DNA of 64,000 bases from an uncultured Propionivibrio sp. (GCA_964575415.1 CAZNQL010000017.1:127-64126); one strand, 5' to 3'. Positions 2,815-31,256 are shown, counted from the stretch's first letter. Translations and numbers: made by a program. Notes: generated by a model from the sequence alone, not told the origin.

Positions 2815-4461
2815 CTACATGTTCGGGTAGTTCGGACCGTCGCCGCCTTGCGGGGGGGTCCATACGATGTTCTGCGTCGGGTCCTTGATGTCGCAGGCTT
2901 TGCAGTGTACGCAATTTTGCGCGTTGATTTGCAGGCGCGGATTCTCGTCGGCGGCGTCGCGCAGGATTTCATAGACACCCGCCGGACAGTAGCGCTGCTC
3001 CGGAGCGTCGAAGTGCGCCAGATTGACGCGGAGCGGAACGCTCGCGTCTTTGAGCGTGAGATGACAGGGCTGGTTTTCTTCGTGGCGGGTGTGGGAGAGA
3101 TCGACCGACGACATGCGGTCGAAGCTGATCTGGCCGTCCGGTTTTGGGTAGGCGATTGGCCGGCAATCGGCGGTCTTCAGCAGCCGGGTATGGTCGGCGG
3201 CCCGGTGGCGCAGCGTCCACGGCGCCTTGCCCCGAAAGACGTGCTGATCGAGGGCGAACATTACGCTGCCGAGGTACAGCCCCTTGTTCATCCAGGGTTT
3301 GAAGTTGCGTCCTCGCTGCAATTCGTCGAAGAGCGGACTGGCGCAGAAGGCGCGCGGGTAGGCGAGCAGCTTGTCGTGGCTACGGCCGGCGGTCAGCGCT
3401 TCGAAGCAGGCGTCCGCCGCCAGCCTGCCCGAGTCGATGGCGCCATGTGCCCCCTTGAGGCGTGCGGCATTGAGAAAGCCGGCGTCGTCGCCGATCAGCG
3501 CGCCGCCCGGAAAAACCAGCCTGGGCAAAGACTGGACGCCGCCGGCGCTGAGCGTGCGCGCGCCGTAGGCGATGCGGCGACCGCCCTCGAGGGTTTTTCG
3601 CAGGGCCGGATGCGTTTTGTAGCGCTGGAATTCCTCGAACGTTGAAAGATAGGGGTTGCGATAGCCGAGGCCGGTGACGAGTCCGACCGCCACTTGGTTG
3701 TCCCGTAGGTGGTACAAGAAGCCGCCGCCGTAGGTCTGCGCGTCGAGCGGCCAGCCGACGCTGTGGATGACGCGTCCGGCTTGATGTTTTTCCGGAGGGA
3801 TTTCCCACAGTTCCTTGATGCCGAGCGCGTAGGTCTGCGGATCGGCGTGTTCGCGCAGGCGGAACCGGTCTTCGAGTTGCCGGCCGAGATGGCCGCGGCT
3901 GCCTTCGGCGAAAAGCGTGTAGCGCGCGAGCAGCGCCATGCCCGGCTGGTAGTTCGGACCGTGCGAACCGTTCTTGAGCACGCCAAGGTCGCCGGTGGCG
4001 ATGCCGACGACCGCGCCGTCTTCGTCGTAAAGAATCTCGCTGCCGGCGAATCCGGGGTAGATTTCGACGCCTAGCGTTTCTGCCTGCCGGCCAAGCCAGC
4101 GGCACAGTTCGGCGAGGCTGACGACGTGATTGCCCCGGTTGAGAAAGCAGTCCGGCAGCAGCCAGTCTGGAACCGCGATGCTGCCGCTTTCGTCGAGCAA
4201 CAGGAAACGGTCTTCGACGACCGGCGTATCGACGGGCGCGCCTTGCGCTTGCCAGTCCGGGAGCAGACGGTTCAGCGCGGACGGGTCGAGTATGGCCCCG
4301 GAGAGGATGTGACCGCCGATTTCCGCCGCTTTTTCGATCAGGCAGACATTGACGTCGGCACTCTTTTCGCCGGCGAGCTGCTTGAGACGGATCGCAGCGG
4401 CCAGCCCGGCCGGGCCGCCGCCGACGATCACCACATCGAATTCTATCGATTCTCTTTGCAT
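2815..4461 (-). CDS. etfD: ETF-ubiquinone oxidoreductase (single chain, FAD plus C-terminal Fe-S)
   Basis: DVVIVGGGPAGL, GHILSGA, YCPAGVYE, NCVHCKACDIKDP. Confidence 0.93.
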   Translation of the reverse strand: MQRESIEFDVVIVGGGPAGLAAAIRLKQLAGEKSADVNVCLIEKAAEIGGHILSGAILDPSALNRLLPDWQAQGAPVDTPVVEDRFLLLDESGSIAVPDWLLPDCFLNRGNHVVSLAELCRWLGRQAETLGVEIYPGFAGSEILYDEDGAVVGIATGDLGVLKNGSHGPNYQPGMALLARYTLFAEGSRGHLGRQLEDRFRLREHADPQTYALGIKELWEIPPEKHQAGRVIHSVGWPLDAQTYGGGFLYHLRDNQVAVGLVTGLGYRNPYLSTFEEFQRYKTHPALRKTLEGGRRIAYGARTLSAGGVQSLPRLVFPGGALIGDDAGFLNAARLKGAHGAIDSGRLAADACFEALTAGRSHDKLLAYPRAFCASPLFDELQRGRNFKPWMNKGLYLGSVMFALDQHVFRGKAPWTLRHRAADHTRLLKTADCRPIAYPKPDGQISFDRMSSVDLSHTRHEENQPCHLTLKDASVPLRVNLAHFDAPEQRYCPAGVYEILRDAADENPRLQINAQNCVHCKACDIKDPTQNIVWTPPQGGDGPNYPNM

Positions 4462-4577
4462 TCACCAGAGCCTTGAAAGCTTACGCGCCGGTTCGGGAAC
4501 ATCCCGGCGTCGGCGCAGTATACGGCATCGTTCGTTTGCGGTTGTACCGTTGCCGGCGAAGTTGTCGGTATTGTGTT

Positions 4578-4593
4578 TGTCGCTTTTGCGACA
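4578..4593 (+). promoter_or_regulatory. NifA upstream activator sequence
   Basis: TGT-cgcttttgcg-ACA is an exact TGT-N10-ACA, about 65 bp upstream of a -24/-12 promoter with an AT-rich stretch between. Confidence 0.8.
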
Positions 4594-4654
4594 AGGCGTC
4601 GGCTTTGTCGTATGCCTGTAATGTTCAACGCGTTGTTAATAAAAGAAAAACGGG

Positions 4655-4671
4655 CTGGCACCGGAATTGCT
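4655..4671 (+). promoter_or_regulatory. sigma54 (-24/-12) promoter of nifVWZM
   Basis: CTGGCAC-cggaa-TTGCT matches the consensus TGGCAC-N5-TTGCW. Confidence 0.88.
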
Positions 4672-4692
4672 CACATGAGGTCAGGAGGCCTT

Positions 4693-6201
4693 ATGTCACA
4701 AGCCGGACAGTCATTCATCGTCATCAACGATACGACGCTACGCGACGGCGAGCAATCGGCCGGGGTCGCTTTCACCCTCGACGAAAAGCTGGCCATCGCA
4801 CGCCATCTTGCCGCGCTGGGCGTGCCCGAACTCGAAGTCGGCATTCCGGCGATGGGCGAGGCCGAGCGCGAGAGCATCCGCGCCGTGGCCGCTCTGGGAC
4901 TGTCGTCGCGCCTGATGGTGTGGAGCCGCATGCACGAGAGCGACATCGCCGCCTGCTGCGGACTGGGGGCGCACCTGATCGACATTTCTGTGCCTTCGTC
5001 GGATCAACACCTCGCCCACAAGTTGCGCCGTGACCGCGCCTGGTTGCTGTCGCGCATCGGCTACCACATTTCGCTTGCCCTCGACGCCGGCTTCGAAGTC
5101 TGCATCGGCGCCGAGGATGCCTCGCGCGCCGATCCGGATTTCCTTGCACAAATCGCCGAAGCGGCACAGCGTGCCGGGGCGCGGCGGATTCGCTTCGCCG
5201 ATACGCTCGGCGTGCTCGATCCGTTCGCCGTCGCCGAGCGCATCGCGCGTCTGCGTGCGACAACCGACCTCGAAATCGAAATGCACGCCCACGACGACCT
5301 CGGTCTGGCGACGGCCAACACGCTGGCGGCGGTGCGTGCTGGCGCCACGCATGTCAATACCACGGTCAACGGCCTCGGCGAGCGTGCCGGCAACGCCGCG
5401 CTCGAAGAAGTCGTGCATGGATTGCACCAGTGCTACGGCATCGAAACCGGCGTCGATCTGCGCCAGTTCCCGGAAGTGTCGGCGCTGGTCGCGCAGGCGT
5501 CTGGACGGCCGGTGGCCTGGCAGAAGAGCCTCGTCGGTGAGGGGGTGTTCACGCACGAAGCCGGCATCCATGTCGACGGCCTCCTGAAACATCCCGACAA
5601 CTATCAGGGTTTCGACCCGCGCCTCGTCGGCCGCGACCACCGCGTCGTCCTCGGCAAGCATTCGGGCAAAGGCGGTGTGCAGGCCGTGTTTTCGATGCTC
5701 GGCAAGACGGTCGGCGATGAAGAGGCAGAAACGCTGGTCGGCGAAATTCGCGACTTCGTCAATCGTTGCAAGCGACCGTCGTCGCCGGAAGAGTTGTTGT
5801 TCATGCTGGCGGAGCAGCAATCGAAGGCCCGCGGCCAATTGTCCCCACTGATTTCAACCGAGAAGGAATGCACCATGAGCCTCGATGCCACCGACTTTGA
5901 GCAGGAAGTTGCCGAACTGGAATCCGCCGAGGATTTTCTCGAATATTTCAACATCGAATACGACCCAGCGGTCGTCCAGGTCAACCGGCTGCATATCCTG
6001 CAGCGTTTCCACGACTACCTGGCCCGGCGCGCTGAAACGCAGACGCTGACCTACGCCGAATACCGGACAAGCCTCGGCATGGCTTATGAGGATTTCGTCC
6101 GTTCCGATGCGGTGACCGAGAAAGTGTTCAAGGTCTTCAAACGGGCGTCGGGCATCGCAACCGTTCCGCTGTCCGCCATCGGCCGCGCGACGAGGCACTG
6201 A
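4693..6201 (+). CDS. nifV: Homocitrate synthase NifV, reading in frame into NifW
   Basis: [47 protein letters not shown]; RBS AGGAGG before ATG 4693; no stop before nifW. Confidence 0.92.
5875..6201 (+). CDS. nifW: Nitrogenase-stabilising protein NifW (own RBS and ATG inside the nifV frame)
   Basis: [35 protein letters not shown]...EKVFKVF; AGAAGGA at 5861-5867. Confidence 0.9.
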
Positions 6202-6665
6202 TGCAAACGCAATTCGATCTCGGCGATTCGGTGCGTGTCGTGCGCAATGTGCGCAACGACGGCACCTATCCCGGCGCGGCCATGGGCGATCTCCTGGTGC
6301 GTCTCGGCAGCGTCGGCACCGTTGTCGATATCGGCACCTTCCTCATGGATCAGATCATCTATACCGTGCACTTTCTCGATGACGACAAGATGGTCGGTTG
6401 CCGCGAGGAAGAAGTGATCGGCGCCGACGATCCCTGGGTGCCCAGCCTGTTCGAATCGCGCGAAAAAGTACGCGCGGGCAAGTTGCTCAAGCTCAGCGAG
6501 GATGCGCAAATACCGATCGGCGCCATCGGCGAAGTCCTGAAAGTCCTGCGCGACGAGGCCTCGGCTACCGTTCTTTACCATATGCATTTCGACTGCCTGC
6601 CGGGCCGCACGCTGGCCGTGCCCGAGTCGGCGCTTTCACCCCTGAGGGACGACCGTGCAGACTGA
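6201..6665 (+). CDS. nifZ: NifZ
   Basis: GDSVRVVRNVRNDGTYPG...GTFLMDQIIYTVHF...VGCREEE. Confidence 0.92.
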   Translation: MQTQFDLGDSVRVVRNVRNDGTYPGAAMGDLLVRLGSVGTVVDIGTFLMDQIIYTVHFLDDDKMVGCREEEVIGADDPWVPSLFESREKVRAGKLLKLSEDAQIPIGAIGEVLKVLRDEASATVLYHMHFDCLPGRTLAVPESALSPLRDDRAD

Positions 6666-6675
6666 AAGGAAAGCT

Positions 6676-7513
6676 GTGGATACCCCATCCTTATCTCCGC
6701 CTCAAGCTGGCGCAGGAGCTGTTCCGGAAAGCGCCCGACAAGCTCGAACCGGAGGAATGTAAACGCGTCGACGACGTCGTTGCGCGGCAGTTGCAGATCG
6801 AACGGCGCATCCTGTCCACGCCGGAAGCGGCGCAGGTCGTCCTGCCGTCGTCGTCGGTCGAGCAATCGCTGGGCGAGATTCGTCAGCGTTATCTGACCGA
6901 CGAGGAATTCGTCGCCGATCTCAACGTCTCCGGGCTGGACCCGGTCAGCCTCGCCGATGCGATCCGACGCGACTTGACCGTCGACGCCGTGCTCGACCGC
7001 ATCGCCAGCCGGGTTGCCGAAGTGACGGAAACCGACGTCGAAATCTTCTACCTGATGCACCGCGAACGCTTCAAGCGCCCGGAATTCCGCCGCTTCAAGC
7101 ACATTCTCGTCACCATCAACGAAAACATGGCCGGTAGCGATCGCCAGTCGGCGCGCGAAAAGATCGACGCCATCCGCGAACGGCTGCTCAAATCGCCCGG
7201 ACGCTTTGCCGAGCAGGCACTGAAACATTCCGAATGTCCGACGGCAACGAACGGCGGCGAGTTGGGCACGGTCAAGCGCGGCCAGTTGTTTCCAGAACTC
7301 GAACCGGCTGCCTTTGCGCTCGACGTTGAAGCGCTGTCGGAAGTGCTCGAATCGCCGATCGGTTTTCACCTGATGTGCTGCGAGGCCATCGAAGAAGCCC
7401 GCGAACTGCCGCTACCGGATGTGCGGGCAAAAATCCGCCAGCAATTGAGCGAAACGCGCCGCCGCTCGGTGCAGAAAACCTGGGTCGCCAGATTGTTCAA
7501 GCAGGAAGGTTGA
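6676..7513 (+). CDS. nifM: NifM parvulin-type PPIase; the likely start GTG 6676 is one base out of frame
   Basis: HPYLRLKLA, KHILVTINE, ALKHSECPTATNGGELG, VLESPIGFHL; position after nifZ. Confidence 0.85.
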
Positions 7514-7570
7514 TCAGGTTGCAGAGGCTAGCTGCGTGTAAGGTGTTTTGGCCGTCGGTCTGGGTGAGAA

Positions 7571-7641
7571 GGACAGAAAACGACCCTCAATAGCCATCCA
7601 TTGACCCAACGCCGAGCGACCGCTGCTTGACCAATGCTGCC
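7571..7641. repeat. Degenerate member of the recombinase-associated palindromic motif family
   Basis: Reverse strand reads GGCAGCATTGGTCAA...TTGGGTCAAT...GAGGGTCGTTTTCTGTCC, similar to motifs at 27426-27450 and 30972-30995. Confidence 0.5.
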
Positions 7642-7653
7642 AATAAATAACGT

Positions 7654-8265
7654 TCAGCGCGATGCAGAGGTGGCTATCTTTGCTGCTAAACCAAGTAGCA
7701 CTACTCCAACGACTCGGTCAAACCAAACCAAGCGGGATCCGAGCCAATCAAGGACGCGACGTGATGAAAACATAGCCGACACGATGCCGAACCAGAGGAA
7801 AGATTCCCCAACTAGCAGGACCCAGAGAAGCGCCGTATCAACGGTCCCCAGCTCTGGGGTAAGAACCTGCGAGAGAATCGAGCCGAAATAGAGCATTGCT
7901 TTTGGGTTCAATAGGTTGGTCAGGAACCCTGAAACGAATGCTTTTCCGACTTGACCGCGTGATTGCATCTCCGGCAATTGCCCCTTGGAGCGCAAACACT
8001 GAATGCCCAGCCACGCCAGATACATTGCACCAGTCACGGACAATAAAGTGGAAAGCCCTGGCAATGCCGCCAAGACCAAAGACAGTCCGAACGCGCAGAC
8101 CAATATATAGACTCCGATTGCGGCTGCAACACCTGCTGCTGCCCAGAGGCCAGTCTGGCGACCGGATACGATCGAGAGGCGAGTGACAATTGCGAAGTCA
8201 GGTCCGGGTGAAATCAAGGCGACTGCATGGATAGCCAGCACAAGGGTTAGAGCTTCCCAAGACAT
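7654..8265 (-). CDS. LysE/RhtB-family amino-acid exporter
   Basis: ISPGPDFAIV and GFLTNLLNPKAMLYF motifs; hydrophobic. Confidence 0.9.
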   Translation of the reverse strand: MSWEALTLVLAIHAVALISPGPDFAIVTRLSIVSGRQTGLWAAAGVAAAIGVYILVCAFGLSLVLAALPGLSTLLSVTGAMYLAWLGIQCLRSKGQLPEMQSRGQVGKAFVSGFLTNLLNPKAMLYFGSILSQVLTPELGTVDTALLWVLLVGESFLWFGIVSAMFSSRRVLDWLGSRLVWFDRVVGVVLLGLAAKIATSASR

Positions 8266-8398
8266 GTTGATTCTCTGAATAACAAGGAGCGGGTATTTTG
8301 AACGCTTCGGGGTGAAATAGGCAAAACAGTCATCGAAGCACGTGGCATTCTGTGGTCAGCATCAGTCAAAAACCTGCCTTTGCTACACGCTAGCAAAG

Positions 8399-8418
8399 AT
8401 GGCTGGAATTGGCCTATT
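8399..8418. repeat. 20-bp motif shared with the recombinase island
   Basis: ATGGCTGGAATTGGCCTATT is 19/20 identical to the reverse complement of 29333-29352. Confidence 0.7.
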
Positions 8419-8500
8419 TCACGACTGTATCGCTACCGGCGCAGAAATGCCATAACAATAACAAGGCGCGCAACGGTTTGCTGGCCGTGCGTCTTTTGAA

Positions 8501-9133
8501 TTAAGCCGGACTACGGGGTACGCTTACTATTTCGCCGCGTGCCTGACGGATGACGCTGATCGACGCCGAAATGGCCAGTGACGCAATGATGACGGCAACA
8601 AGCAGATCGGGCCACGCCGATGCGGTGCCGAAGACACCGATTGCTGCGAGGGCGATCGCGACGTTGACGATGGCGTCGTTGCGGCTGCACAGCCAGACGG
8701 AACGCATGTTGGCGTCGCCAGCGCGGAAGGCGTAAAGCATCAGCGCCACGCTGAGGTCGGCGACCAGCGCCACGAGGGCGATGGAGCCCATGGTGAAGGG
8801 TTCCGGCGGCACGCCGGAGAGTGAAGCCCAGCCGGTTTTGACCAGTACGAAGCCGCCGTAGAGGCCCATGGTCCAGCCTTTGACCAGCGCGGCGCGGGCA
8901 CGCCACAAGAGTCCTCTGGAAAGGACGGCCAGGGAGAGGCCGTAGTTGGCCGCGTCGCCAGCGAAATCGACGGCGTCAGCGAGCAGGGATACCGAGCCCG
9001 ATTTCAGGCCGCCGACGATTTCCACCGCGAACATCAGGGTGTTGATGACCAAGGCGACCCAGAGCGCCTTGCGAAAGCGTGGGTCGATTGCACTCTTGGC
9101 GGAAGAACAGCTTCCTGAACAGCAAGCGGACAT
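8501..9133 (-). CDS. Cation diffusion facilitator (CzcD-like, short) with Cys-rich N-terminus
   Basis: MSACCSGSC; SLLADAVDFAGDAANY; MRSVWLCSRNDAI. Confidence 0.88.
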   Translation of the reverse strand: MSACCSGSCSSAKSAIDPRFRKALWVALVINTLMFAVEIVGGLKSGSVSLLADAVDFAGDAANYGLSLAVLSRGLLWRARAALVKGWTMGLYGGFVLVKTGWASLSGVPPEPFTMGSIALVALVADLSVALMLYAFRAGDANMRSVWLCSRNDAIVNVAIALAAIGVFGTASAWPDLLVAVIIASLAISASISVIRQARGEIVSVPRSPA

Positions 9134-9159
9134 GGCATTTCTCCGTATTTGATAATTGC

Positions 9160-9190
9160 ATTGAAAACCCTGGAGCGACTCCAGTGTCAA
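9160..9190 (-). promoter_or_regulatory. MerR-type (CadR/PbrR) operator-promoter of the CDF gene
   Basis: Minus strand: TTGACA, 19-bp spacer containing the dyad CTGGAG-TCG-CTCCAG, then TTCAAT. The 19-bp spacing is the MerR hallmark. Confidence 0.85.
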
Positions 9191-9221
9191 CGCTCATAAT
9201 GTATGGCGAAAAGGAGTGGGT

Positions 9222-9614
9222 ATGCGTATTGGCGAATTGGCGCGGAAAACCGGACTCGGTATCGATACTATCCGTTACTACGAAAAATCCGGATTGCTCA
9301 CCGCACCGCCGAGACGTGGCAACGGGTACAGGGAGTATGGAGGCGATCATCTCGAACGATTGGCCTTCATCCGTCATTGCCGGGCGCTAGATATGCCGCT
9401 GGCCGATGTGCGGCGTTTGATCGATTTTCTGACCTGTCCCGAGGCGGATTGCGGCGACATCAATCGATTGATCGATAGTCAGTTGGCCTGTGTCAGAAAG
9501 AGGCTCGATAGTTTGCGGGCCCTGGAAAAGCAACTCATGGCGCTACGCGCTCAGTGCGGTGAAAATTCGGTCGCACGTAAGTGCGGCATCCTGCGCGAGC
9601 TGACTTCGCCCTGA
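9222..9614 (+). CDS. MerR-family Cd(II)/Pb(II)-responsive regulator
   Basis: MRIGELA..TIRYYEK.GLL; RHCRALDM; Cys at C..IN, QC and CGIL positions. Confidence 0.9.
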   Translation: MRIGELARKTGLGIDTIRYYEKSGLLTAPPRRGNGYREYGGDHLERLAFIRHCRALDMPLADVRRLIDFLTCPEADCGDINRLIDSQLACVRKRLDSLRALEKQLMALRAQCGENSVARKCGILRELTSP

Positions 9615-26531: not shown

Positions 26532-26637
26532 GCGGCAGGGCTGGCTTCGAATAGAGATAAAGACGAATCTTAACGCCTGCGCGCGCCATCCGGAATACTT
26601 GCGCGGCATGTCGTTGTTTCCGGTGTATCCTGCGCGG

Positions 26638-27422
26638 ATGACGAAAACGACGCCCACGACAACTTCTGCCACTCCCTTTGCCAGCCTGACGCCCGATTCC
26701 ATGCTCGATGCCCTGGAGAGCATCGGACTGACTCCCGATGGCCGTCTGCTTGCGCTCAACAGTTACGAGAACCGCGTTTATCAGGTGTTCATGGACGACG
26801 GCCGGCCGCTGATCGTCAAGTTCTACCGCGCCGGGCGCTGGTCGGACGCGGCGATCCTCGAAGAGCATGCGTTTACGACCGAGCTTGCCGAGCGGGAATT
26901 GCCGGTCGTCGCGCCACGGCCGATCAACGGGCAGACCCTGCATCATTTTGGCGACTTGCGTTTCGCCGTTTTCCCCCGGCAGGGCGGGCGCCCGAATTCG
27001 ACCGCGCCAGCAGCTTCGCCACGCTACGCCTGCATGGCGATTGCCACGCCGGCAACGTCCTCTGGCAGGAGGAGAGTGGCCCCTGCTTCGTCGACTTCGA
27101 CGATGCGCGCATGGGGCCGGCGGTGCAGGACCTGTGGATGCTGCTCTCCGGCGAACGTGCGGATCAGGTTCGCCAGTTGGCCGACGTACTCGCCGGCTAC
27201 GAGGACTTTTTCGAGTTCGACGCACGCGAACTGCATCTCGTCGAAGCCTTGCGCACGCTGCGCCTGATTCACTACGCCGGCTGGCTGGCGCGGCGCTGGG
27301 ACGATCCGGCGTTCCCCGCCGCTTTCCCCTGGTTCAACACCCAGCGCTATTGGCAGGACCGCATCCTCGAATTGCGTGAACAGATCGCCCTGATGGACGA
27401 ACCGCCGCTGTGGGTGGGGTGA
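26638..27422 (+). pseudogene. srkA: Ser/Thr kinase SrkA/RdoA (YihE) with a frameshift and an internal deletion
   Basis: LNSYENRVY, KFYR.GRWS, EEH in frame 1; LRLHGDCH.GNVL, DFDD, PAVQDLWM, RWDDPAFP in another frame; switch near 26990; central segment missing. Confidence 0.85.
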
Positions 27423-27460
27423 ACGGGCTGGATTTCGGCCAAAGCTGCCGGTAGCCTTCC

Positions 27461-27501
27461 CAATGAAAGATGGCCGGTTCTGATACCAGACCGGCCATTT
27501 G
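27461..27501. repeat. Left end site (palindrome ATGGCCGGT..ACCGGCCAT)
   Basis: Reverse complement matches 31036-31076 at 33/41; 7 of the 8 mismatches form the central spacer. Confidence 0.85.
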
Positions 27502-27882
27502 CTTTGTAAGAGAGGTTTCAATCAAGCTACGTCGACTTCTGACCCCCAAGAGCCTTCATCGTCTTGATGGCTGTGCGGCAAGTGTCCCGCATTCAGCATC
27601 CCTTGCCATTCATATGGCGCCACATTGCGGAGTTGATTGCACGACTTTCCATGTGCAGAACTAATCATTCAATCCCCATTCTTGCTGTGGGTCAAGACTA
27701 GACATTTTCGGCAGGAGGAGTAGTCTATGACCGTGCCTGATGCGTAGTAGATCGGGCCACCCAGTAACAACGCGACTGGAGGCAAGATGGTCGAATGTCC
27801 GCCGCAGTGCGTGATGATTGCGTAGTACCCAAACGGCGAATGCCGAATACCTTGGTCAATCGCTACGAGGTCAAGGATTTAC

Positions 27883-27952
27883 GAAGCCCATGTCCGACCG
27901 GCATGGGCTTCACGCATTATGCGTCCCCGAATTGAAGCGGAACGTCCGCTTC
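27883..27952. repeat. Two perfect palindromes in the ORF-free left arm of the island
   Basis: GAAGCCCATG-N9-CATGGGCTTC (27883-27911) and GAAGCGGA-ACG-TCCGCTTC (27934-27952). Confidence 0.7.
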
Positions 27953-28124
27953 ACAAGTCAGCAAACTCACACACACGACCCTGATCCGACCTTCAGAGTT
28001 TGTAAAAGCGGACAATCAACTCTGAAAAATGATCGAAAAACCGCGTAACATGAGGAAGGCATGCGCTATGACTGCCGACATCGACCCTAGCACCACCAAC
28101 TCACTCCTTTAAACGAATACATCA

Positions 28125-28445
28125 ATGAAAAAGCAACTATTTAACTACGCACTAATTTGCATATTGCTTACGTTTGCCTCGGTGTCAAAAGCAGAAGACA
28201 TCGACTACCCCCCGGCAATTCAGAGGCTCAAAGATTATAATGGCATGTCGATTATAAAAAAATTTCCTGCGGTTAGTGGACTAACTGGATGGGTTGTCAA
28301 AGATAACGAAACAAACAAGTATGCCATTATGTATTTCACACAGGACGGTCAAAGTATAGTCGCAGGCATGCTTGTCGACATTAAAGGCAATAATTTAACG
28401 AAAACATACGCGGATAAATATTTAACAAAACTACGGAGTGAATGA
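28125..28445 (+). CDS. Secreted protein resembling a stand-alone DsbG N-terminal dimerisation domain
   Basis: Signal peptide to SKA/ED; PAIQRL..GMSIIKKF.A.SGLTGW..IMYFTQDG..I.AG.L.D.KGNNLT; no CXXC. Confidence 0.65.
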   Translation: MKKQLFNYALICILLTFASVSKAEDIDYPPAIQRLKDYNGMSIIKKFPAVSGLTGWVVKDNETNKYAIMYFTQDGQSIVAGMLVDIKGNNLTKTYADKYLTKLRSE

Positions 28446-28639
28446 CTGTGCCCTGATGGACAAAGCACAGCTACACTCCGATAGTTTTTAGTTTGCTCAG
28501 GACAATGTCTGCTTTTTTTTTGGGCGAGTAAGCAAGTGTCCGCTCGTGGCCGATTGTACGCATTCGGCATCCGAAGGGAAAGCTGCCTTTGCACTTTAGG
28601 TGAAAAATCAGACTCCGATTAACAAAGAAGGAGTCTGTC

Positions 28640-29254
28640 ATGGAATCAAATAGATACCGCGAACCCTGGAATAAAAGAAAGTTGGTCGGTCAGAAGCCCC
28701 CGTTAAAGCCAAAAGACATCTGGGCGATCCGGATCAATCTGCAAAACACAGGCCAGATAAGAGGCCTAGCCATGTTCAATCTGGCGATTGACAGCAAGCT
28801 TCGTGGTTGTGACCTCGTCAGTCTCCGCGTTCGTGACATAACCCACGGTAACCAAGTCTTGACCCGTGCGATGGTCGTCCAAAGGAAAACACAGCGGCCT
28901 GTTCAGTTTGAGCTGACCGAACCGACACGGGCATCGGTTACAGCGTGGATCGAAAAAGCCAAGCTGAGGCAGGATCAATACCTTTTCCCCTGCCGCCTCT
29001 CAAAATCACCGCACGTCTCTACAAGGCAATATGCACGAATAGTCCATCAGTGGGTTGCTGCTGCGGGTCTTGATCCCAGTGTTTATGGTACGCACACAAT
29101 GGGCCGAACCAAGGCCACGTTAATCTATAAGCGTACTAAGAACCTGAGGGCAGTACAGATTCTGCTGGGGCACACAAAGCTTGAGAGCACCGTTCGATAC
29201 CTTGGAATCGAGGTTGATGACGCGCTTGAAATCTCTGAACAAACTGAGATTTAG
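28640..29254 (+). CDS. Minimal (204 aa) tyrosine recombinase, catalytic domain only
   Basis: AIDSKLRGCDL (R), QRKT (K), HTMGR (HxxR altered to G), LLGH, TVRYL (Y). Confidence 0.92.
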   Translation: MESNRYREPWNKRKLVGQKPPLKPKDIWAIRINLQNTGQIRGLAMFNLAIDSKLRGCDLVSLRVRDITHGNQVLTRAMVVQRKTQRPVQFELTEPTRASVTAWIEKAKLRQDQYLFPCRLSKSPHVSTRQYARIVHQWVAAAGLDPSVYGTHTMGRTKATLIYKRTKNLRAVQILLGHTKLESTVRYLGIEVDDALEISEQTEI

Positions 29255-29465
29255 CGTCCTGAATCACGGTCGCGCGCAGGATACGACATTTTCTTCGTGC
29301 GACCGCTTTCCGGCAAGATTCCAAATGCGTACAATCGGCCAATTCCAGCCATTCAGAATATTTCTCGTAAGCGGACGTCAGCCTCCTGTACGCATTATTA
29401 ACAATTACTTGACAATTCTGCTTCCGATCAACTGTAGGTAATTATTATTCACAAAGCGAGGGTTT

Positions 29466-29798
29466 ATGATTGAACAACAAGAAATGAAGCGACTCACCAC
29501 TGGCAACATCTTCAAATTGCTTCTGCTTGGAACTTCTTGCTCAATTATTCCCTTTTCTCTGGTAATGGGCATTCTCAGCATTTTTGGGGCATCAACAGTT
29601 ACATGGAATGATCAGCCTTTAACTGGAGTTACAGGCCTAATCGCGTCCCCCTTTATCGGGGCGTTTATTGCCTTGCTGCTTTCTGGAATATTTGGCCTCT
29701 TTATCGCATTAGGGCTATGGTTCTACTCCCGCTTCAAACCTCTAACCGTTCAATATTGGTGTGTTGATTCTCAAGCTGAGAGCAAGGTCACCACCTAA
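29466..29798 (+). CDS. Small membrane protein, cassette-like ORF
   Basis: Two to three hydrophobic helices; stop TAA lies within ACCTAAC. Confidence 0.7.
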   Translation: MIEQQEMKRLTTGNIFKLLLLGTSCSIIPFSLVMGILSIFGASTVTWNDQPLTGVTGLIASPFIGAFIALLLSGIFGLFIALGLWFYSRFKPLTVQYWCVDSQAESKVTT

Positions 29799-29874
29799 CA
29801 TGGCGGTTAAGGACGCTCTCTCTGGTCGCCGGGACTCGCTGCAAGTGGAGCGTCCCTCACCTTGACCGTTGAAG
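29793..29874 (+). other. Integron attC-like recombination site
   Basis: R'' ACCTAAC ... R' GTTGAAG; internal stem GGACGCTC/GAGCGTCC and CGGTTAA/TTGACCG; 82 bp. Confidence 0.6.
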
Positions 29875-30075
29875 GTCCGTTTTACTCACTGGTGACAGAC
29901 TGCCTTTGGTCGAAAGTATGCATTGACGGTATTTGGAAGCCGCCGTTAGACTGATGGAATACAGCCCAAAGCTGAAACCGGTCAGAAGCAGCCATATCGC
30001 CAATTCTTCTTAAGCTGCCATTTCAACGTTATTTAGTTCATCCATAAACGCCAAAAAGGATGTGTAAGCTCGGCC

Positions 30076-30888
30076 ATGAAAAAAACTCTCCTTACTTTGC
30101 TTGCCTTACTTCCTCTTACCTTCGTAGCCAAAGAAGCAACCTCAGGAACAATGCCACCTGAATGGTGTGAGGAAAAATGGCAAGCCGAGACGTCTGCGCT
30201 TTACCCTGAGACGGGACAGTCTGTAAATGTTGCTGAGACGTGGCTGAAATACAAAGACCAGTGCGAAGGAACTGTTACGTTCGAGAGCAGGCTTGCAATT
30301 GCATATGCAATGAATGGTCAATTCGATAACGCAAGGAATGTTTCCCAGTCAATAACAGCCAAGGATAGCAAGTATGAATACTTGGCAACCTTTTCAGGTA
30401 TAGCTATCGACTACTTTGGGATTATGCACAAAGACCGAATTTCTGAATTTGATGTAAGAACCATAAAAGACAAGTTGGTTGCCTATGTCGGCAAATATCC
30501 AGATTTTCCTGACGCAAATGGACTGCTTGGCGGGCTGTATTCTATGTTGGGCGAACATCAAGCAGCTATTGCATCTTTAGAGCGCGCTAAAGATACAAAA
30601 ATGGACGCTAGTGGCGTTTATAGAAATTTAACAATCAGTCTAACTGAGGTTGGTAGATACCAAGAAGCCATAAATGCAGGAAATACTGCTTATCGTTTGA
30701 AGAAAGCTGTTACTTCTGATCAGTATTTTGCTTATGCAATAGCGAAAGCGGATGCTGGCATAGGGGACTTCAAGTCTGCCATAACTGCATTGCAAGTAAT
30801 TGCTCATAAGAAGCCAGAAGTACGGTCTGATCCGGAATTTAAGGCAACAGTTGATTTTGTGAAAAATAAACACAATACCGCCAAATAA
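30076..30888 (+). CDS. Exported TPR-like helical-repeat protein
   Basis: Signal peptide MKKTLLTLLALLP; TPR-like segments YPDFPDA..LLG.LY...G....AI..LERA and Y.NL...L...GRYQEAI. Confidence 0.7.
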   Translation: MKKTLLTLLALLPLTFVAKEATSGTMPPEWCEEKWQAETSALYPETGQSVNVAETWLKYKDQCEGTVTFESRLAIAYAMNGQFDNARNVSQSITAKDSKYEYLATFSGIAIDYFGIMHKDRISEFDVRTIKDKLVAYVGKYPDFPDANGLLGGLYSMLGEHQAAIASLERAKDTKMDASGVYRNLTISLTEVGRYQEAINAGNTAYRLKKAVTSDQYFAYAIAKADAGIGDFKSAITALQVIAHKKPEVRSDPEFKATVDFVKNKHNTAK

Positions 30889-31035
30889 AAATTGAATATG
30901 GTCGGGGAAAGCGGTCCGAGAATGCGAAGGGAAACGTTGGAGATGGACGTCTGCTTTTCTGCTAGCTGACTGACCGAAATGGGTCGATAGCCGAAGTAGC
31001 CAGCCAAAGAAGCTGACTTTTCACCGTTTAAAGTT

Positions 31036-31076
31036 CAAATGGCCGGTCTATATGTCGAACCGGCCATTTTTCATTG
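31036..31076. repeat. Right end site, inverted relative to 27461-27501
   Basis: CAAATGGCCGGTCT-atatgtc-GAACCGGCCATTTTTCATTG. Confidence 0.85.
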
Positions 31077-31256
31077 ATGACGTATCTGGCCGCAAAGGCC
31101 GAGAACCGGACGCAAACGCGCCGTTAGCGTCTCCAAATACCTTGAAGCGCATTCTTTTCTGGGATGAAAAGCAAAAAGCTAAGCTCAGATAGGCTGGCTT
31201 TGACGTGGAAGCATACCCTTGCCAAACGGCAAAGTGATGGTTGCAGGAATAGGCGC

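Follow-up and report, generated by a model that had tools for sequence, protein, structure and literature searches.

Introduction

How does a small block of foreign DNA come to lie between two convergent chromosomal genes, with short palindromic motifs at its edges and between its own genes, and what kind of enzyme may have placed it there? This question is raised by a window of 64,000 nucleotides (GCA_964575415.1 CAZNQL010000017.1:127-64126; coordinates without a prefix are counted from its first letter) from the genome of an uncultured Propionivibrio sp., in which a block of approximately 3.7 kb, carrying the gene of a 204-amino-acid (aa) tyrosine recombinase, is located between srkA and a metallophosphoesterase gene. 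The first-pass annotation of this window interpreted the block as a gene-capture array, analogous to an integron, in which the small recombinase adds and removes single genes at palindromic sites. The observation behind that interpretation was confirmed, and the interpretation itself was partly supported.

The explanation that we favour, with moderate confidence, is that the block is a horizontally acquired island which would have been built and delimited through site-specific recombination by the 204-aa recombinase family, and which now persists as the fossil of an exchange system similar to that of the pdif modules.

Core sites at the edges of the island

The block between srkA and the metallophosphoesterase gene is clearly foreign DNA, given that the content of guanine and cytosine (GC) is 0.465 in its interior and 0.625 and 0.630 in the 2-kb flanks, which agrees with the earlier description of a low-GC block set between these two convergent genes. 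Its four open reading frames (ORFs) are all on the same strand, and its limits, initially placed at 27423-31130, are replaced here by 27441-31096, based on two copies of a 24-nt core (GNCNGNWWW-TCGGCC-WWWGCNGNC) organized as 9-6-9, with palindromic arms around an asymmetric TCGGCC. These cores enclose 3.64 kb of DNA with a GC of 0.465:

27426-27449, plus strand: left core, GGCTGGATT-TCGGCC-AAAGCTGCC, an exact match to GNCNGNWWWTCGGCCWWWGCNGNC, 4 nt after the srkA stop codon
31088-31111, minus strand: right core, GTCCGGTTC-TCGGCC-TTTGCGGCC, with 1 mismatch to GNCNGNWWWTCGGCCWWWGCNGNC, inverted in relation to the left core

When the genome (2.5 Mb) was searched with GNCNGNWWWTCGGCCWWWGCNGNC, allowing at most one mismatch and using the reversed pattern as the control, five matches were obtained, and none for the control. 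Besides the two in the window, a second convergent pair is found on C15 (16360, plus strand, and 20866, minus strand), around a 4.48-kb island with a GC of 0.51 and flanks of 0.61 and 0.65, and the fifth core borders a low-GC patch. The C15 island (C15:16360-20889; L162 2361-6890) resembles a defence island, with a Mrr_cat nuclease-like protein, a DUF4365/TPR protein and two uncharacterised proteins. In the window, each of the two cores is followed on its inner side by a second motif pair which forms a terminator-like hairpin.

Further small low-GC islands are located at C15:61532-64173 (L014 5533-8174) and from C23:26553 to approximately 28284 (L154 254-1985), each with a TCGGCC box or hairpin on one side and, on the other, a solo site of the type found at the left end of the recombinase module described below. 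The former shares a 470-nt arm with the window, and its cargo is formed by two different uncharacterised genes.

A decayed prophage or a remnant of an integrative and conjugative element (ICE), bounded by a conventional attL/attR pair and with motifs that would be due to chance or left over, could also account for the low GC, the gene fragments and a dead gene of the integrase family, and some homologues of the recombinase are in fact found in regions with conjugation genes. This origin is barely credible, however, as profile searches of the block proteins revealed no phage or transfer genes, and a repeat search revealed no direct repeats flanking the block, the ends of which form an inverted pair of a site with five occurrences in the genome. 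In addition, the enrichment of the motifs exceeds that of 300/300 shuffled sequences, and the same module ends are conserved in approximately 60 loci. The first-pass annotation had itself named a conventional attL/attR pair, or homologues without conserved flanking motifs, as evidence that would speak against it; no such pair is present, and conserved flanking motifs do exist.

The small recombinase and its module

The recombinase gene forms the centre of a compact unit with inverted ends:

28547-29341, plus strand: recombinase module of 0.79 kb (left inverted end, gene, stem-loop and right inverted end), recognized through its inverted repeat and a profile of the ends
28640-29254, plus strand: gene of the 204-aa tyrosine recombinase, matching only PF00589 (residues 33-188)

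Among solved structures, this protein has its closest relative in the C-terminal domain of XerD, residues 128-281 of which align to residues 37-191 of the recombinase, and a low-confidence AlphaFold model (12-sequence alignment, pLDDT 61) begins with the disordered residues 1-22, which are followed by a helix, a beta-hairpin and a helix, in the usual order. Together with the match to PF00589 alone, these data point to a recombinase with neither an arm-binding nor a core-binding domain. The integron-integrase model TIGR02249 returned 24.7 bits, against a cut-off of 265, which is in line with the earlier description of a protein with no arm-binding domain and no IntI insertion, and no IntI match above the cut-off was found anywhere in the genome. 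The XerC and XerD profiles were also below their cut-offs (TIGR02224, 57.6 bits, cut-off 335; TIGR02225, 43.7 bits, cut-off 330), separate full-length Xer-like genes being present on C20 and C2, as was the DNA-invertase profile PRK09871 (16.7 bits, E = 0.004, cut-off 222). Searches of Pfam and NCBIfam produced generic matches only, with no structure beyond the Xer relatives.

Of the more than 8000 candidate homologues that received a score, the top 120 have, with few exceptions, a length of exactly 204 aa and 83-87% identity to the window protein, in hosts that include Thiobacillus, Dechloromonas, Accumulibacter, Zoogloea, Sulfuritalea, Vogesella, Paraburkholderia and others. Identities of 83-90% were obtained for hundreds of 204-aa proteins. 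Across 301 genomes of the order, the recombinase is patchily distributed, being present in 36 genomes and in 32 of the 143 genera, at 1-4 copies per genome, and many copies have stop codons or are truncated. The module family is very widespread in the Betaproteobacteria. It is also apparently undescribed and unstudied: a search of the full-text literature, which included the end sequences, recovered no description of either the recombinase family or its sites, which is not proof of absence, and a classification of the tyrosine recombinases mentions no such group (PMC8138268). One subfamily (L090 6541-9947; L096 562-3966) has its 204-aa gene interrupted near codon 182 by an insertion of 3.4 kb, which has inverted repeats of 32-36 nt and a tyrosine recombinase of its own, and beyond which the final 22 codons and the right end of the module are found.

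In the window, the second catalytic arginine of the recombinase is lost, as the HxxR box reads HTMGRT (R155G), whereas HTMRRT or HSMRRT is found in 11/11 aligned homologues, and the R...K...HxxR...H...Y set is thus incomplete; G13R, S118C and L174I are further changes at near-invariant columns. The R155G change is not a consensus error, since an independent assembly (L116) is 100% identical. Given that the catalytic arginine is lost and that the window copy is the only one in the assembly, which is 95% complete, the locus is probably inert. The system in this genome reads as a fossil, with R155G in its sole recombinase copy and several degenerate sites, and the locus is useful mainly as a well-delimited fossil, which helped to define the core and its polarity.

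The inverted ends of the module are approximately 55 nt long (left, from 28547, TGGCCGATTGTACGCAT...GAAAGCTGCC; right, up to 29341, ...ATGCGTACAATCGGCCA), and contain a 37-nt repeat, 81% complementary, at 28547-28583 and 29305-29341. When searched by nhmmer with a profile built from the ends of other loci, both window ends were recovered (E = 2e-9 and 1e-11), and exactly three sites were found in the genome, i.e., those on either side of the gene and a third, solo, on C15. The same ends are present in approximately 60 of the 79 homologous loci (TGGCCGATTGTACGCA...GAAAGCnGCC on the left and its inverse, ...TGCGTACAATCGGCCA, on the right), with an arm motif directly outside each of them, in support of the first-pass interpretation.

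A relative matches the DNA of the window exactly, end to end (28542-29341), one contig of 797 bp starts and stops exactly at the module ends, and two Vogesella species share a 772-783-bp unit which is 99.2-99.7% identical, whereas the neighbouring chromosome is 80% identical. The module can thus be considered a discrete unit. The gene-bearing contigs are often only 0.7-1.2 kb long, most homologous loci have just the two module ends, and a comparison of the locus flanks revealed no direct duplication around the module.

Such a unit might also be an autonomous element similar to an insertion sequence (IS), which targets the palindromic repeats of the host, in which case the island would be a pile-up of independent insertions, with the cargo arriving by other routes. 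The Vogesella module (99.7%, with 80% in the flanks), the contig that equals the module, and the many short gene contigs would all suit this possibility, which we consider unlikely, as would the inverted copies of the arm motif that flank the module at each locus, as if it had been inserted into a palindrome. The inverted ends of an insertion sequence are indeed present, but the sole gene is that of a tyrosine recombinase, rather than a transposase of the DDE, DEDD, HUH or serine type, and the copy number is low, at 1-4 per genome.

On the other hand, inverted ends around a recombinase of approximately 200 aa with no core-binding domain, the weak match to PRK09871, and neighbouring genes on the same strand would be expected of a self-inverting switch, in which an enzyme of the size of FimB/FimE flips its own segment and toggles the adjacent genes. 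No inverted copy of the module was found, however, in approximately 30 contexts of identical proteins, all of them collinear, in consensus assemblies that could hide minority orientations. The ends are just 81% complementary, a promoter scan revealed nothing above chance level, and the near-identical modules of different species are indicative of mobility rather than of a resident switch, which makes this alternative highly improbable.

Changes of partner at TCGGCC

Returning to an island shaped by site-specific recombination, the junctions of these loci are seen to switch at TCGGCC in contigs of different samples that share one identical recombinase. In one set, the left side is 98.5-100% identical over at least 2.5 kb, and exactly after ...GGGTAATCGGCC the contigs diverge into five different sequences on the right, all of these flanks starting with the arm motif (ACTGCCGCCGTT, TTTGCTGCCA, ACTGCTGCCGTT, TGACCGGCCATT) and presenting a second copy 30-48 nt further on. 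In another set, three different left contexts meet TCGGCC-TCAACGGCCATTCG, approximately 3 kb from the gene. Two contigs of metagenome-assembled genomes (L021 and L022), 99.9% identical over 9.5 kb, part between TCGGCC and TGAACGGCC, and the pairs L059/L065 and L033/L035 part at the module end.

TCGGCC is common to both partners every time, in the manner of the overlap in the core of a tyrosine recombinase. The swap of neighbouring DNA exactly at TCGGCC in near-identical contigs is among the findings that support the first-pass interpretation. In these sets of identical proteins, one flank only is changed, and not both, which is contrary to what the insertion of an autonomous element would produce. 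The window retains the layout of the swapped partners:

29341-29381, plus strand: right-end flank motifs AATTCCAGCCATTCAG and TAAGCGGACGTCAG, in the two-motif layout of the homologous module flanks and of the swapped partners

Core sites across the genomes of the order

The 301 genomes contain approximately 234 core matches, in comparison with approximately 44 for the control (about 5-fold), counts that were summed by hand from a table and may include an error of a few counts. Their distribution is tied to the presence of the recombinase gene:

Recombinase-positive genomes (n = 36): 79 cores, 2.2 per genome, with at least 3 cores in 17 genomes
Recombinase-negative genomes (n = 265): 155 cores, 0.58 per genome, with at least 3 cores in 16 genomes

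The number of cores per genome is thus 3.8 times higher with the recombinase than without it, a density that, like the convergent core pairs located exactly at the edges of the islands, would not be explained by a passive target of independent insertions. That possibility does draw some support from the presence of cores and of a 107-nt composite unit in many recombinase-negative genomes, and from an unrelated IS91-like element found twice in the same box.

Convergent (+,-) pairs of cores, 2-14 kb apart, occur in at least nine further places, one of which has the recombinase gene inside, whereas the (-,+) order is found only in back-to-back sites 38-42 nt apart. This difference provides a polarity rule, by which TCGGCC, at either end, has the bracketed DNA on its 3' side. 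Some of the segments bracketed in this way in other genomes are not low in GC.

The composite site of 107 nt includes two TCGGCC boxes and several arm motifs and, in some genomes, delimits one- or two-gene modules, in direct orientation, next to parA/parB. For example, the modules at L155 (G111:C4) 4186-5654 and L157 (G252:C44) 6155-9608 consist of an uncharacterised 351-aa gene and of a pair of TetR and epimerase-hydrolase genes, with SIR2_2 and ankyrin genes as their neighbours, and G252 has 12 composite sites in an assembly from which the 204-aa recombinase is absent. The composite was considered as the key site and rejected due to its weak overlap with the recombinase-positive genomes, while the 24-nt core gave a clear signal.

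Motifs, hairpins and the comparison with an array of cassettes

The short motifs reported in the intergenic spaces of the block all exist at the positions given, including GTCCGC/GCGGAC at 27797, 27945, 28008, 28538 and 29371. The arm motif AAGCNGNC, derived independently from the flanks of the homologous loci, was counted 13 times within the spacers (1626 nt) and one further time in a gene, with 1.0-1.8 occurrences expected, a 7- to 12-fold enrichment in the spacers which was reached by 0/300 dinucleotide shuffles. In the same spacers, GTCCGC occurs five times (0.8-1.0 expected; count reached by 0/300 shuffles) and AAGCTGCC three times (0.06-0.1 expected), and both GTCCGC/GCGGAC and AAGCTGCC are instances of the one motif AAGCNGNC. 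TGGGTCGA is found once, a count that is not significant by itself (15/300 shuffles).

The left part of the island is non-coding, and hairpins are found both here and inside the two cores:

27470-27498, no strand assigned: hairpin ATGGCCGGT-N11-ACCGGCCAT, with A and T tracts beside it, the second motif pair on the inner side of the left core
31039-31067, no strand assigned: hairpin ATGGCCGGT-N11-ACCGGCCAT, the right counterpart, a 74% identical direct match to the left one, with 51-nt arms that are 71% complementary
27555-28013, no strand assigned: non-coding arm with hairpins at 27883-27912 and 27933-27955, present in two copies in the genome

The hairpins inside both cores look like bidirectional terminators, and a third similar one is found on C15. 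The arm had been described as free of ORFs and packed with palindromes, which is substantiated by three hairpins with perfect stems of 8 bp or more, with 0.1 expected, and by its second copy (C15:63645-64173, 87-91% identical), in which the substitutions are distributed 14/11/11 by codon position, i.e., with no codon periodicity. A search for this arm returned neither an Rfam family nor a plasmid match, and a copy was present in none of 300 genomes of the order.

Beyond the cores and the module ends, two further candidate sites are located inside the island:

29898-29950, minus strand: solo degenerate site of the left-end type, GACTGCCTT/TGGTCGAAAGTATGCATTGACGG...GGAAGCCGCC, with nhmmer E = 0.13 and a position weight matrix (PWM) score of 15.1, approximately 40th genome-wide
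30949-31017, plus strand: possible degenerate site of the right-end type, GTCTGCTT...AAATGGGTCGATAGCCGAAG...AAGCTGAC, a motif pair 61 nt apart, with a weak alignment to the module ends

The site at 29898 aligns with the module ends, with moderate support, and the assignment of the site at 30949, which contains TGGGTCGA, to the right-end type is weak. The order of the sites is thus core (+) at 27426, module ends (-) at 28547 and (+) at 29341, (-) at 29898, possibly (+) at 30949, and core (-) at 31088. Two other ways of scoring the sites were discarded: a 28-nt PWM of the box alone contained too little information, ranking the weak sites of the window approximately 40th genome-wide or lower, and a loose regular expression for a box plus a motif was uninformative in a GC-rich genome.

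An integron-like capture platform, in which a resident small recombinase adds and removes circular single-gene cassettes in an array of palindromic sites, would be consistent with the arm motif present in every spacer, with the different cargo found beside the shared arm in the window and on C15, with the directly oriented 107-nt composites around modules of one or two genes, and with the switching of the junctions at the box. The motifs are, in fact, genuine sites tied to a small recombinase family that is not IntI, and in this respect the gene-capture interpretation stands. The array of single genes does not. The sites of the window alternate in orientation and the ends of the island form an inverted pair, so that the integron analogy does not fit, and inversion or exchange would be expected, rather than excision.

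Furthermore, the density of the arm motif in 78 related loci is raised only within approximately 500 nt of the gene (0.22-0.29 versus 0.11 per 100 nt), which indicates that arrays are not the rule. The low score of the IntI model and the lack of IntI in the genome, the two module ends that are all that most loci possess, the decay of one of the supposed cassettes, and the apparent inactivation of the window recombinase by R155G further reduce the standing of this platform, which we regard as improbable. A related idea, that the inner and outer arm motifs pair as a long hairpin in the manner of attC, was rejected because the variable positions do not co-vary.

Cargo genes and flanking DNA

Three ORFs accompany the recombinase in the island, together with a short stub:

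28068-28112, plus strand: 14-codon stub, MTADIDPSTTNSLL, kept as MIVGIDPGTTNSLLYV in an unrelated contig (L114)
28125-28445, plus strand: N-terminal fragment of DsbG, 106 aa, with a signal peptide and no thioredoxin domain (NF008657, profile positions 9-94 of 251)
29466-29798, plus strand: 110-aa membrane protein, cargo, with two long hydrophobic stretches in its translation
30076-30888, plus strand: 270-aa secreted TPR protein, cargo, with a signal peptide and matches to TPR families

The first-pass annotation had listed these ORFs as three unrelated single genes, and all of them are real, but the DsbG-like one is a decaying fragment beside the stub. The profile region that it matches is only the N-terminal dimerisation part of DsbG, and a single homologue of similar length was found. 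This homologue is in a contig of another metagenome (L114), which is 87% identical to the block 28017-28501 and includes the stub followed by the fragment, the two proteins being 78% identical. Given the 24 non-synonymous and 10 synonymous codon differences between them, the fragment appears to be decaying neutrally, and is probably a gene remnant. The stub has what we take to be a weak likeness to the N-terminus of an Hsp70/actin-fold ATPase.

No match was found in either Pfam or NCBIfam for the 110-aa hydrophobic protein. The TPR protein is rare, with eight homologues, and those that are 42% identical (L112; L113 4001-4831) start 16 nt after large Rhs/YD-repeat (LysM) genes. The position right after an Rhs/YD toxin gene is the usual place of an immunity gene, and the 270-aa TPR gene is possibly an orphan of the immunity type. 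A 62%-identical homologue (L107, L108) appears, by eye, to be an integron cassette bounded by attC, which was not detected by the attC script. In this case, ...CGTTAGCC was noted by eye upstream of the gene and GGCTAAC...GTTAGCC (approximately 78 nt) downstream, with a further small ORF after it.

The flanks of the island present some peculiarities of their own. The DNA downstream of srkA differs in 5/5 of the relatives examined. The srkA copy of the window (26632-27422) is a pseudogene, in which the N-terminal part (profile positions 3-115) and the C-terminal part (225-326) are in different frames, separated by approximately 113 nt, with the deletion of approximately 110 codons that include the kinase core (profile positions 116-224). 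Between the island and the stop codon of the phosphoesterase gene, a stretch of 51 nt (31192-31242) is 84% identical to L114 238-288, which precedes the DsbG-fragment block of that unrelated contig by approximately 330 nt, in an order that is reversed in relation to the window. Finally, a contig of another run (L117), which corresponds to 27535-28540 of the window and is 99.7% identical to it, stops at 28540, at most 7 nt from the left module end, which could be due to chance or to a variant junction in that sample.

Comparison with known systems

The pdif gene modules, as reportedly described by Blackwell and Hall in 2017, are each flanked by inversely oriented short sites, which alternate along the DNA. 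They occur in different contexts and are recombined by the XerC/XerD of the host, their movement through inverted sites being unsettled. The island is similar in that inversely oriented sites flank its modules (27426, plus, and 31088, minus; 28547, minus, and 29341, plus; 29898, minus). Its sites differ, however, being 9-6-9 with GnCnGnWWW arms and TCGGCC, in contrast with the 28-nt dif of 11-6-11 XerC/XerD boxes, to which the core presumably bears no resemblance, and one of its modules carries a dedicated 204-aa recombinase with no core-binding domain. The pdif modules have been described in plasmids of Acinetobacter (PMC7399989, PMC9771954), whereas the family discussed here is found in the chromosomes and ICE-like regions of Betaproteobacteria, with cargo other than resistance genes.

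With the integrons, the island shares a tyrosine recombinase and short imperfect palindromes that separate small, unrelated and often orphan genes, and a homologue of its TPR cargo is found elsewhere in what appears, by eye, to be an attC cassette. It differs from them by the lack of an IntI-specific domain and of attC-type boxes visible by eye, by alternating sites with an inverted bracketing pair, and by related loci that are generally without arrays. The search of the window for the attC pattern (RYYYAAC...GTTRRRY) yielded no match, but the same pattern also missed the apparent attC in L107.

The size of the enzyme (approximately 200 aa, the catalytic domain being preceded by hardly any sequence) and the inverted sites around a short segment are reminiscent of FimB/FimE, and the location of the enzyme gene inside the segment of Hin/hix. 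Unlike FimB/FimE, however, the protein scores 16.7 bits against the cut-off of 222, no inversion was seen, the module moves between species, and the sites also bracket islands of several kb. In cassette exchange in the laboratory, a segment between inverted lox or FRT pairs is inverted or swapped by a double crossover, and not excised; this application of Cre or Flp is engineered, while the arrangement described here is natural and known from sequence alone. By analogy, the system would resemble the pdif modules and the laboratory cassette exchange more than the integrons.

Proposed mechanism and its difficulties

In the mechanism proposed for an island of this type, the 204-aa protein would be the enzyme and would cleave within the TCGGCC of the 24-nt core. 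The working site would be formed by the two 9-nt arms (GnCnGnWWW and WWWGCnGnC) around the 6-nt overlap, with extra arm motifs 20-50 nt inward, and the island would lie between inverted cores, with TCGGCC pointing inward at both ends. Its segments would be, in order, cargo (the arm and gene fragments), the recombinase module, cargo (the membrane protein), a degenerate module-like unit with the TPR gene, and a short segment. As the two cores of a pair are inverted, excision of the DNA between them is not possible, and either inversion or exchange by double crossover is expected; in the latter case, the whole bracketed segment would be swapped for incoming DNA with an identical pair of sites, in what would be a natural counterpart of recombinase-mediated cassette exchange.

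A number of points weigh against this reading, beginning with the lack of direct products. No circle, inversion or exchange product of the window locus is on record, and the collinear module copies noted above provide no example of inversion. No empty site was found, as srkA and the phosphoesterase gene are adjacent in 0/30 relatives, nor was one with joined flanks found for the C15 island in 54 genomes of the genus. The contigs that switch partners are short, so that the resumption of the old flank is not visible in them and insertion, exchange and rearrangement cannot be separated.

In one set (P0101), an apparent swap of cargo was discarded as such, being due to a 2564-bp IS91-like element in the box, beyond which the old flank resumes. 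This element (L150 5066-7629) encodes an IS91-type Y2 transposase and a 291-aa tyrosine recombinase, lies within a TGGCCGA box upstream of the 204-aa gene, with TG duplicated, and has a terminus, TTAAGGGTTGTACG, which resembles the module end. At L124 (approximately 640-660), the 2564-bp element is found 6-8 nt away, in the opposite orientation.

The sites themselves present further difficulties. The inner arm of the module ends, GCGTACAAT, differs from the arms of the core, and the binding of both arm types by one small protein is unexplained. The two internal sites of the window, at 29898 and 30949, are weak. Among the hand-summed genomes, at least one core is present in 82 of the 265 recombinase-negative ones; these cores, also unexplained, could be relics or independent repeats, or could depend on an enzyme that plasmids or ICEs supply in trans. 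The overlap of the 107-nt composite with the recombinase-positive genomes amounts to 8 observed and 4.1 expected.

Implications

At a broader scale, it may tentatively be suggested that the Betaproteobacteria, as represented by the sampled GTDB order, carry a widespread and undescribed system, formed by a mobile 0.8-kb module, its 204-aa recombinase, TCGGCC cores, and islands with genes of the defence or immunity type that are inverted or exchanged wholesale, and which would be distinct from the integrons, Xer/pdif and the lambda-type systems. If so, this would represent another general route for the acquisition and swapping of small genomic islands in bacteria, and a minimal recombinase would stand behind thousands of database entries that are labelled merely as "integrase". 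It would also provide a concrete model for the movement of modules with inverted sites, a question that is unsolved in pdif, and a 204-aa recombinase with a 24-nt site could be of interest to the builders of molecular tools.

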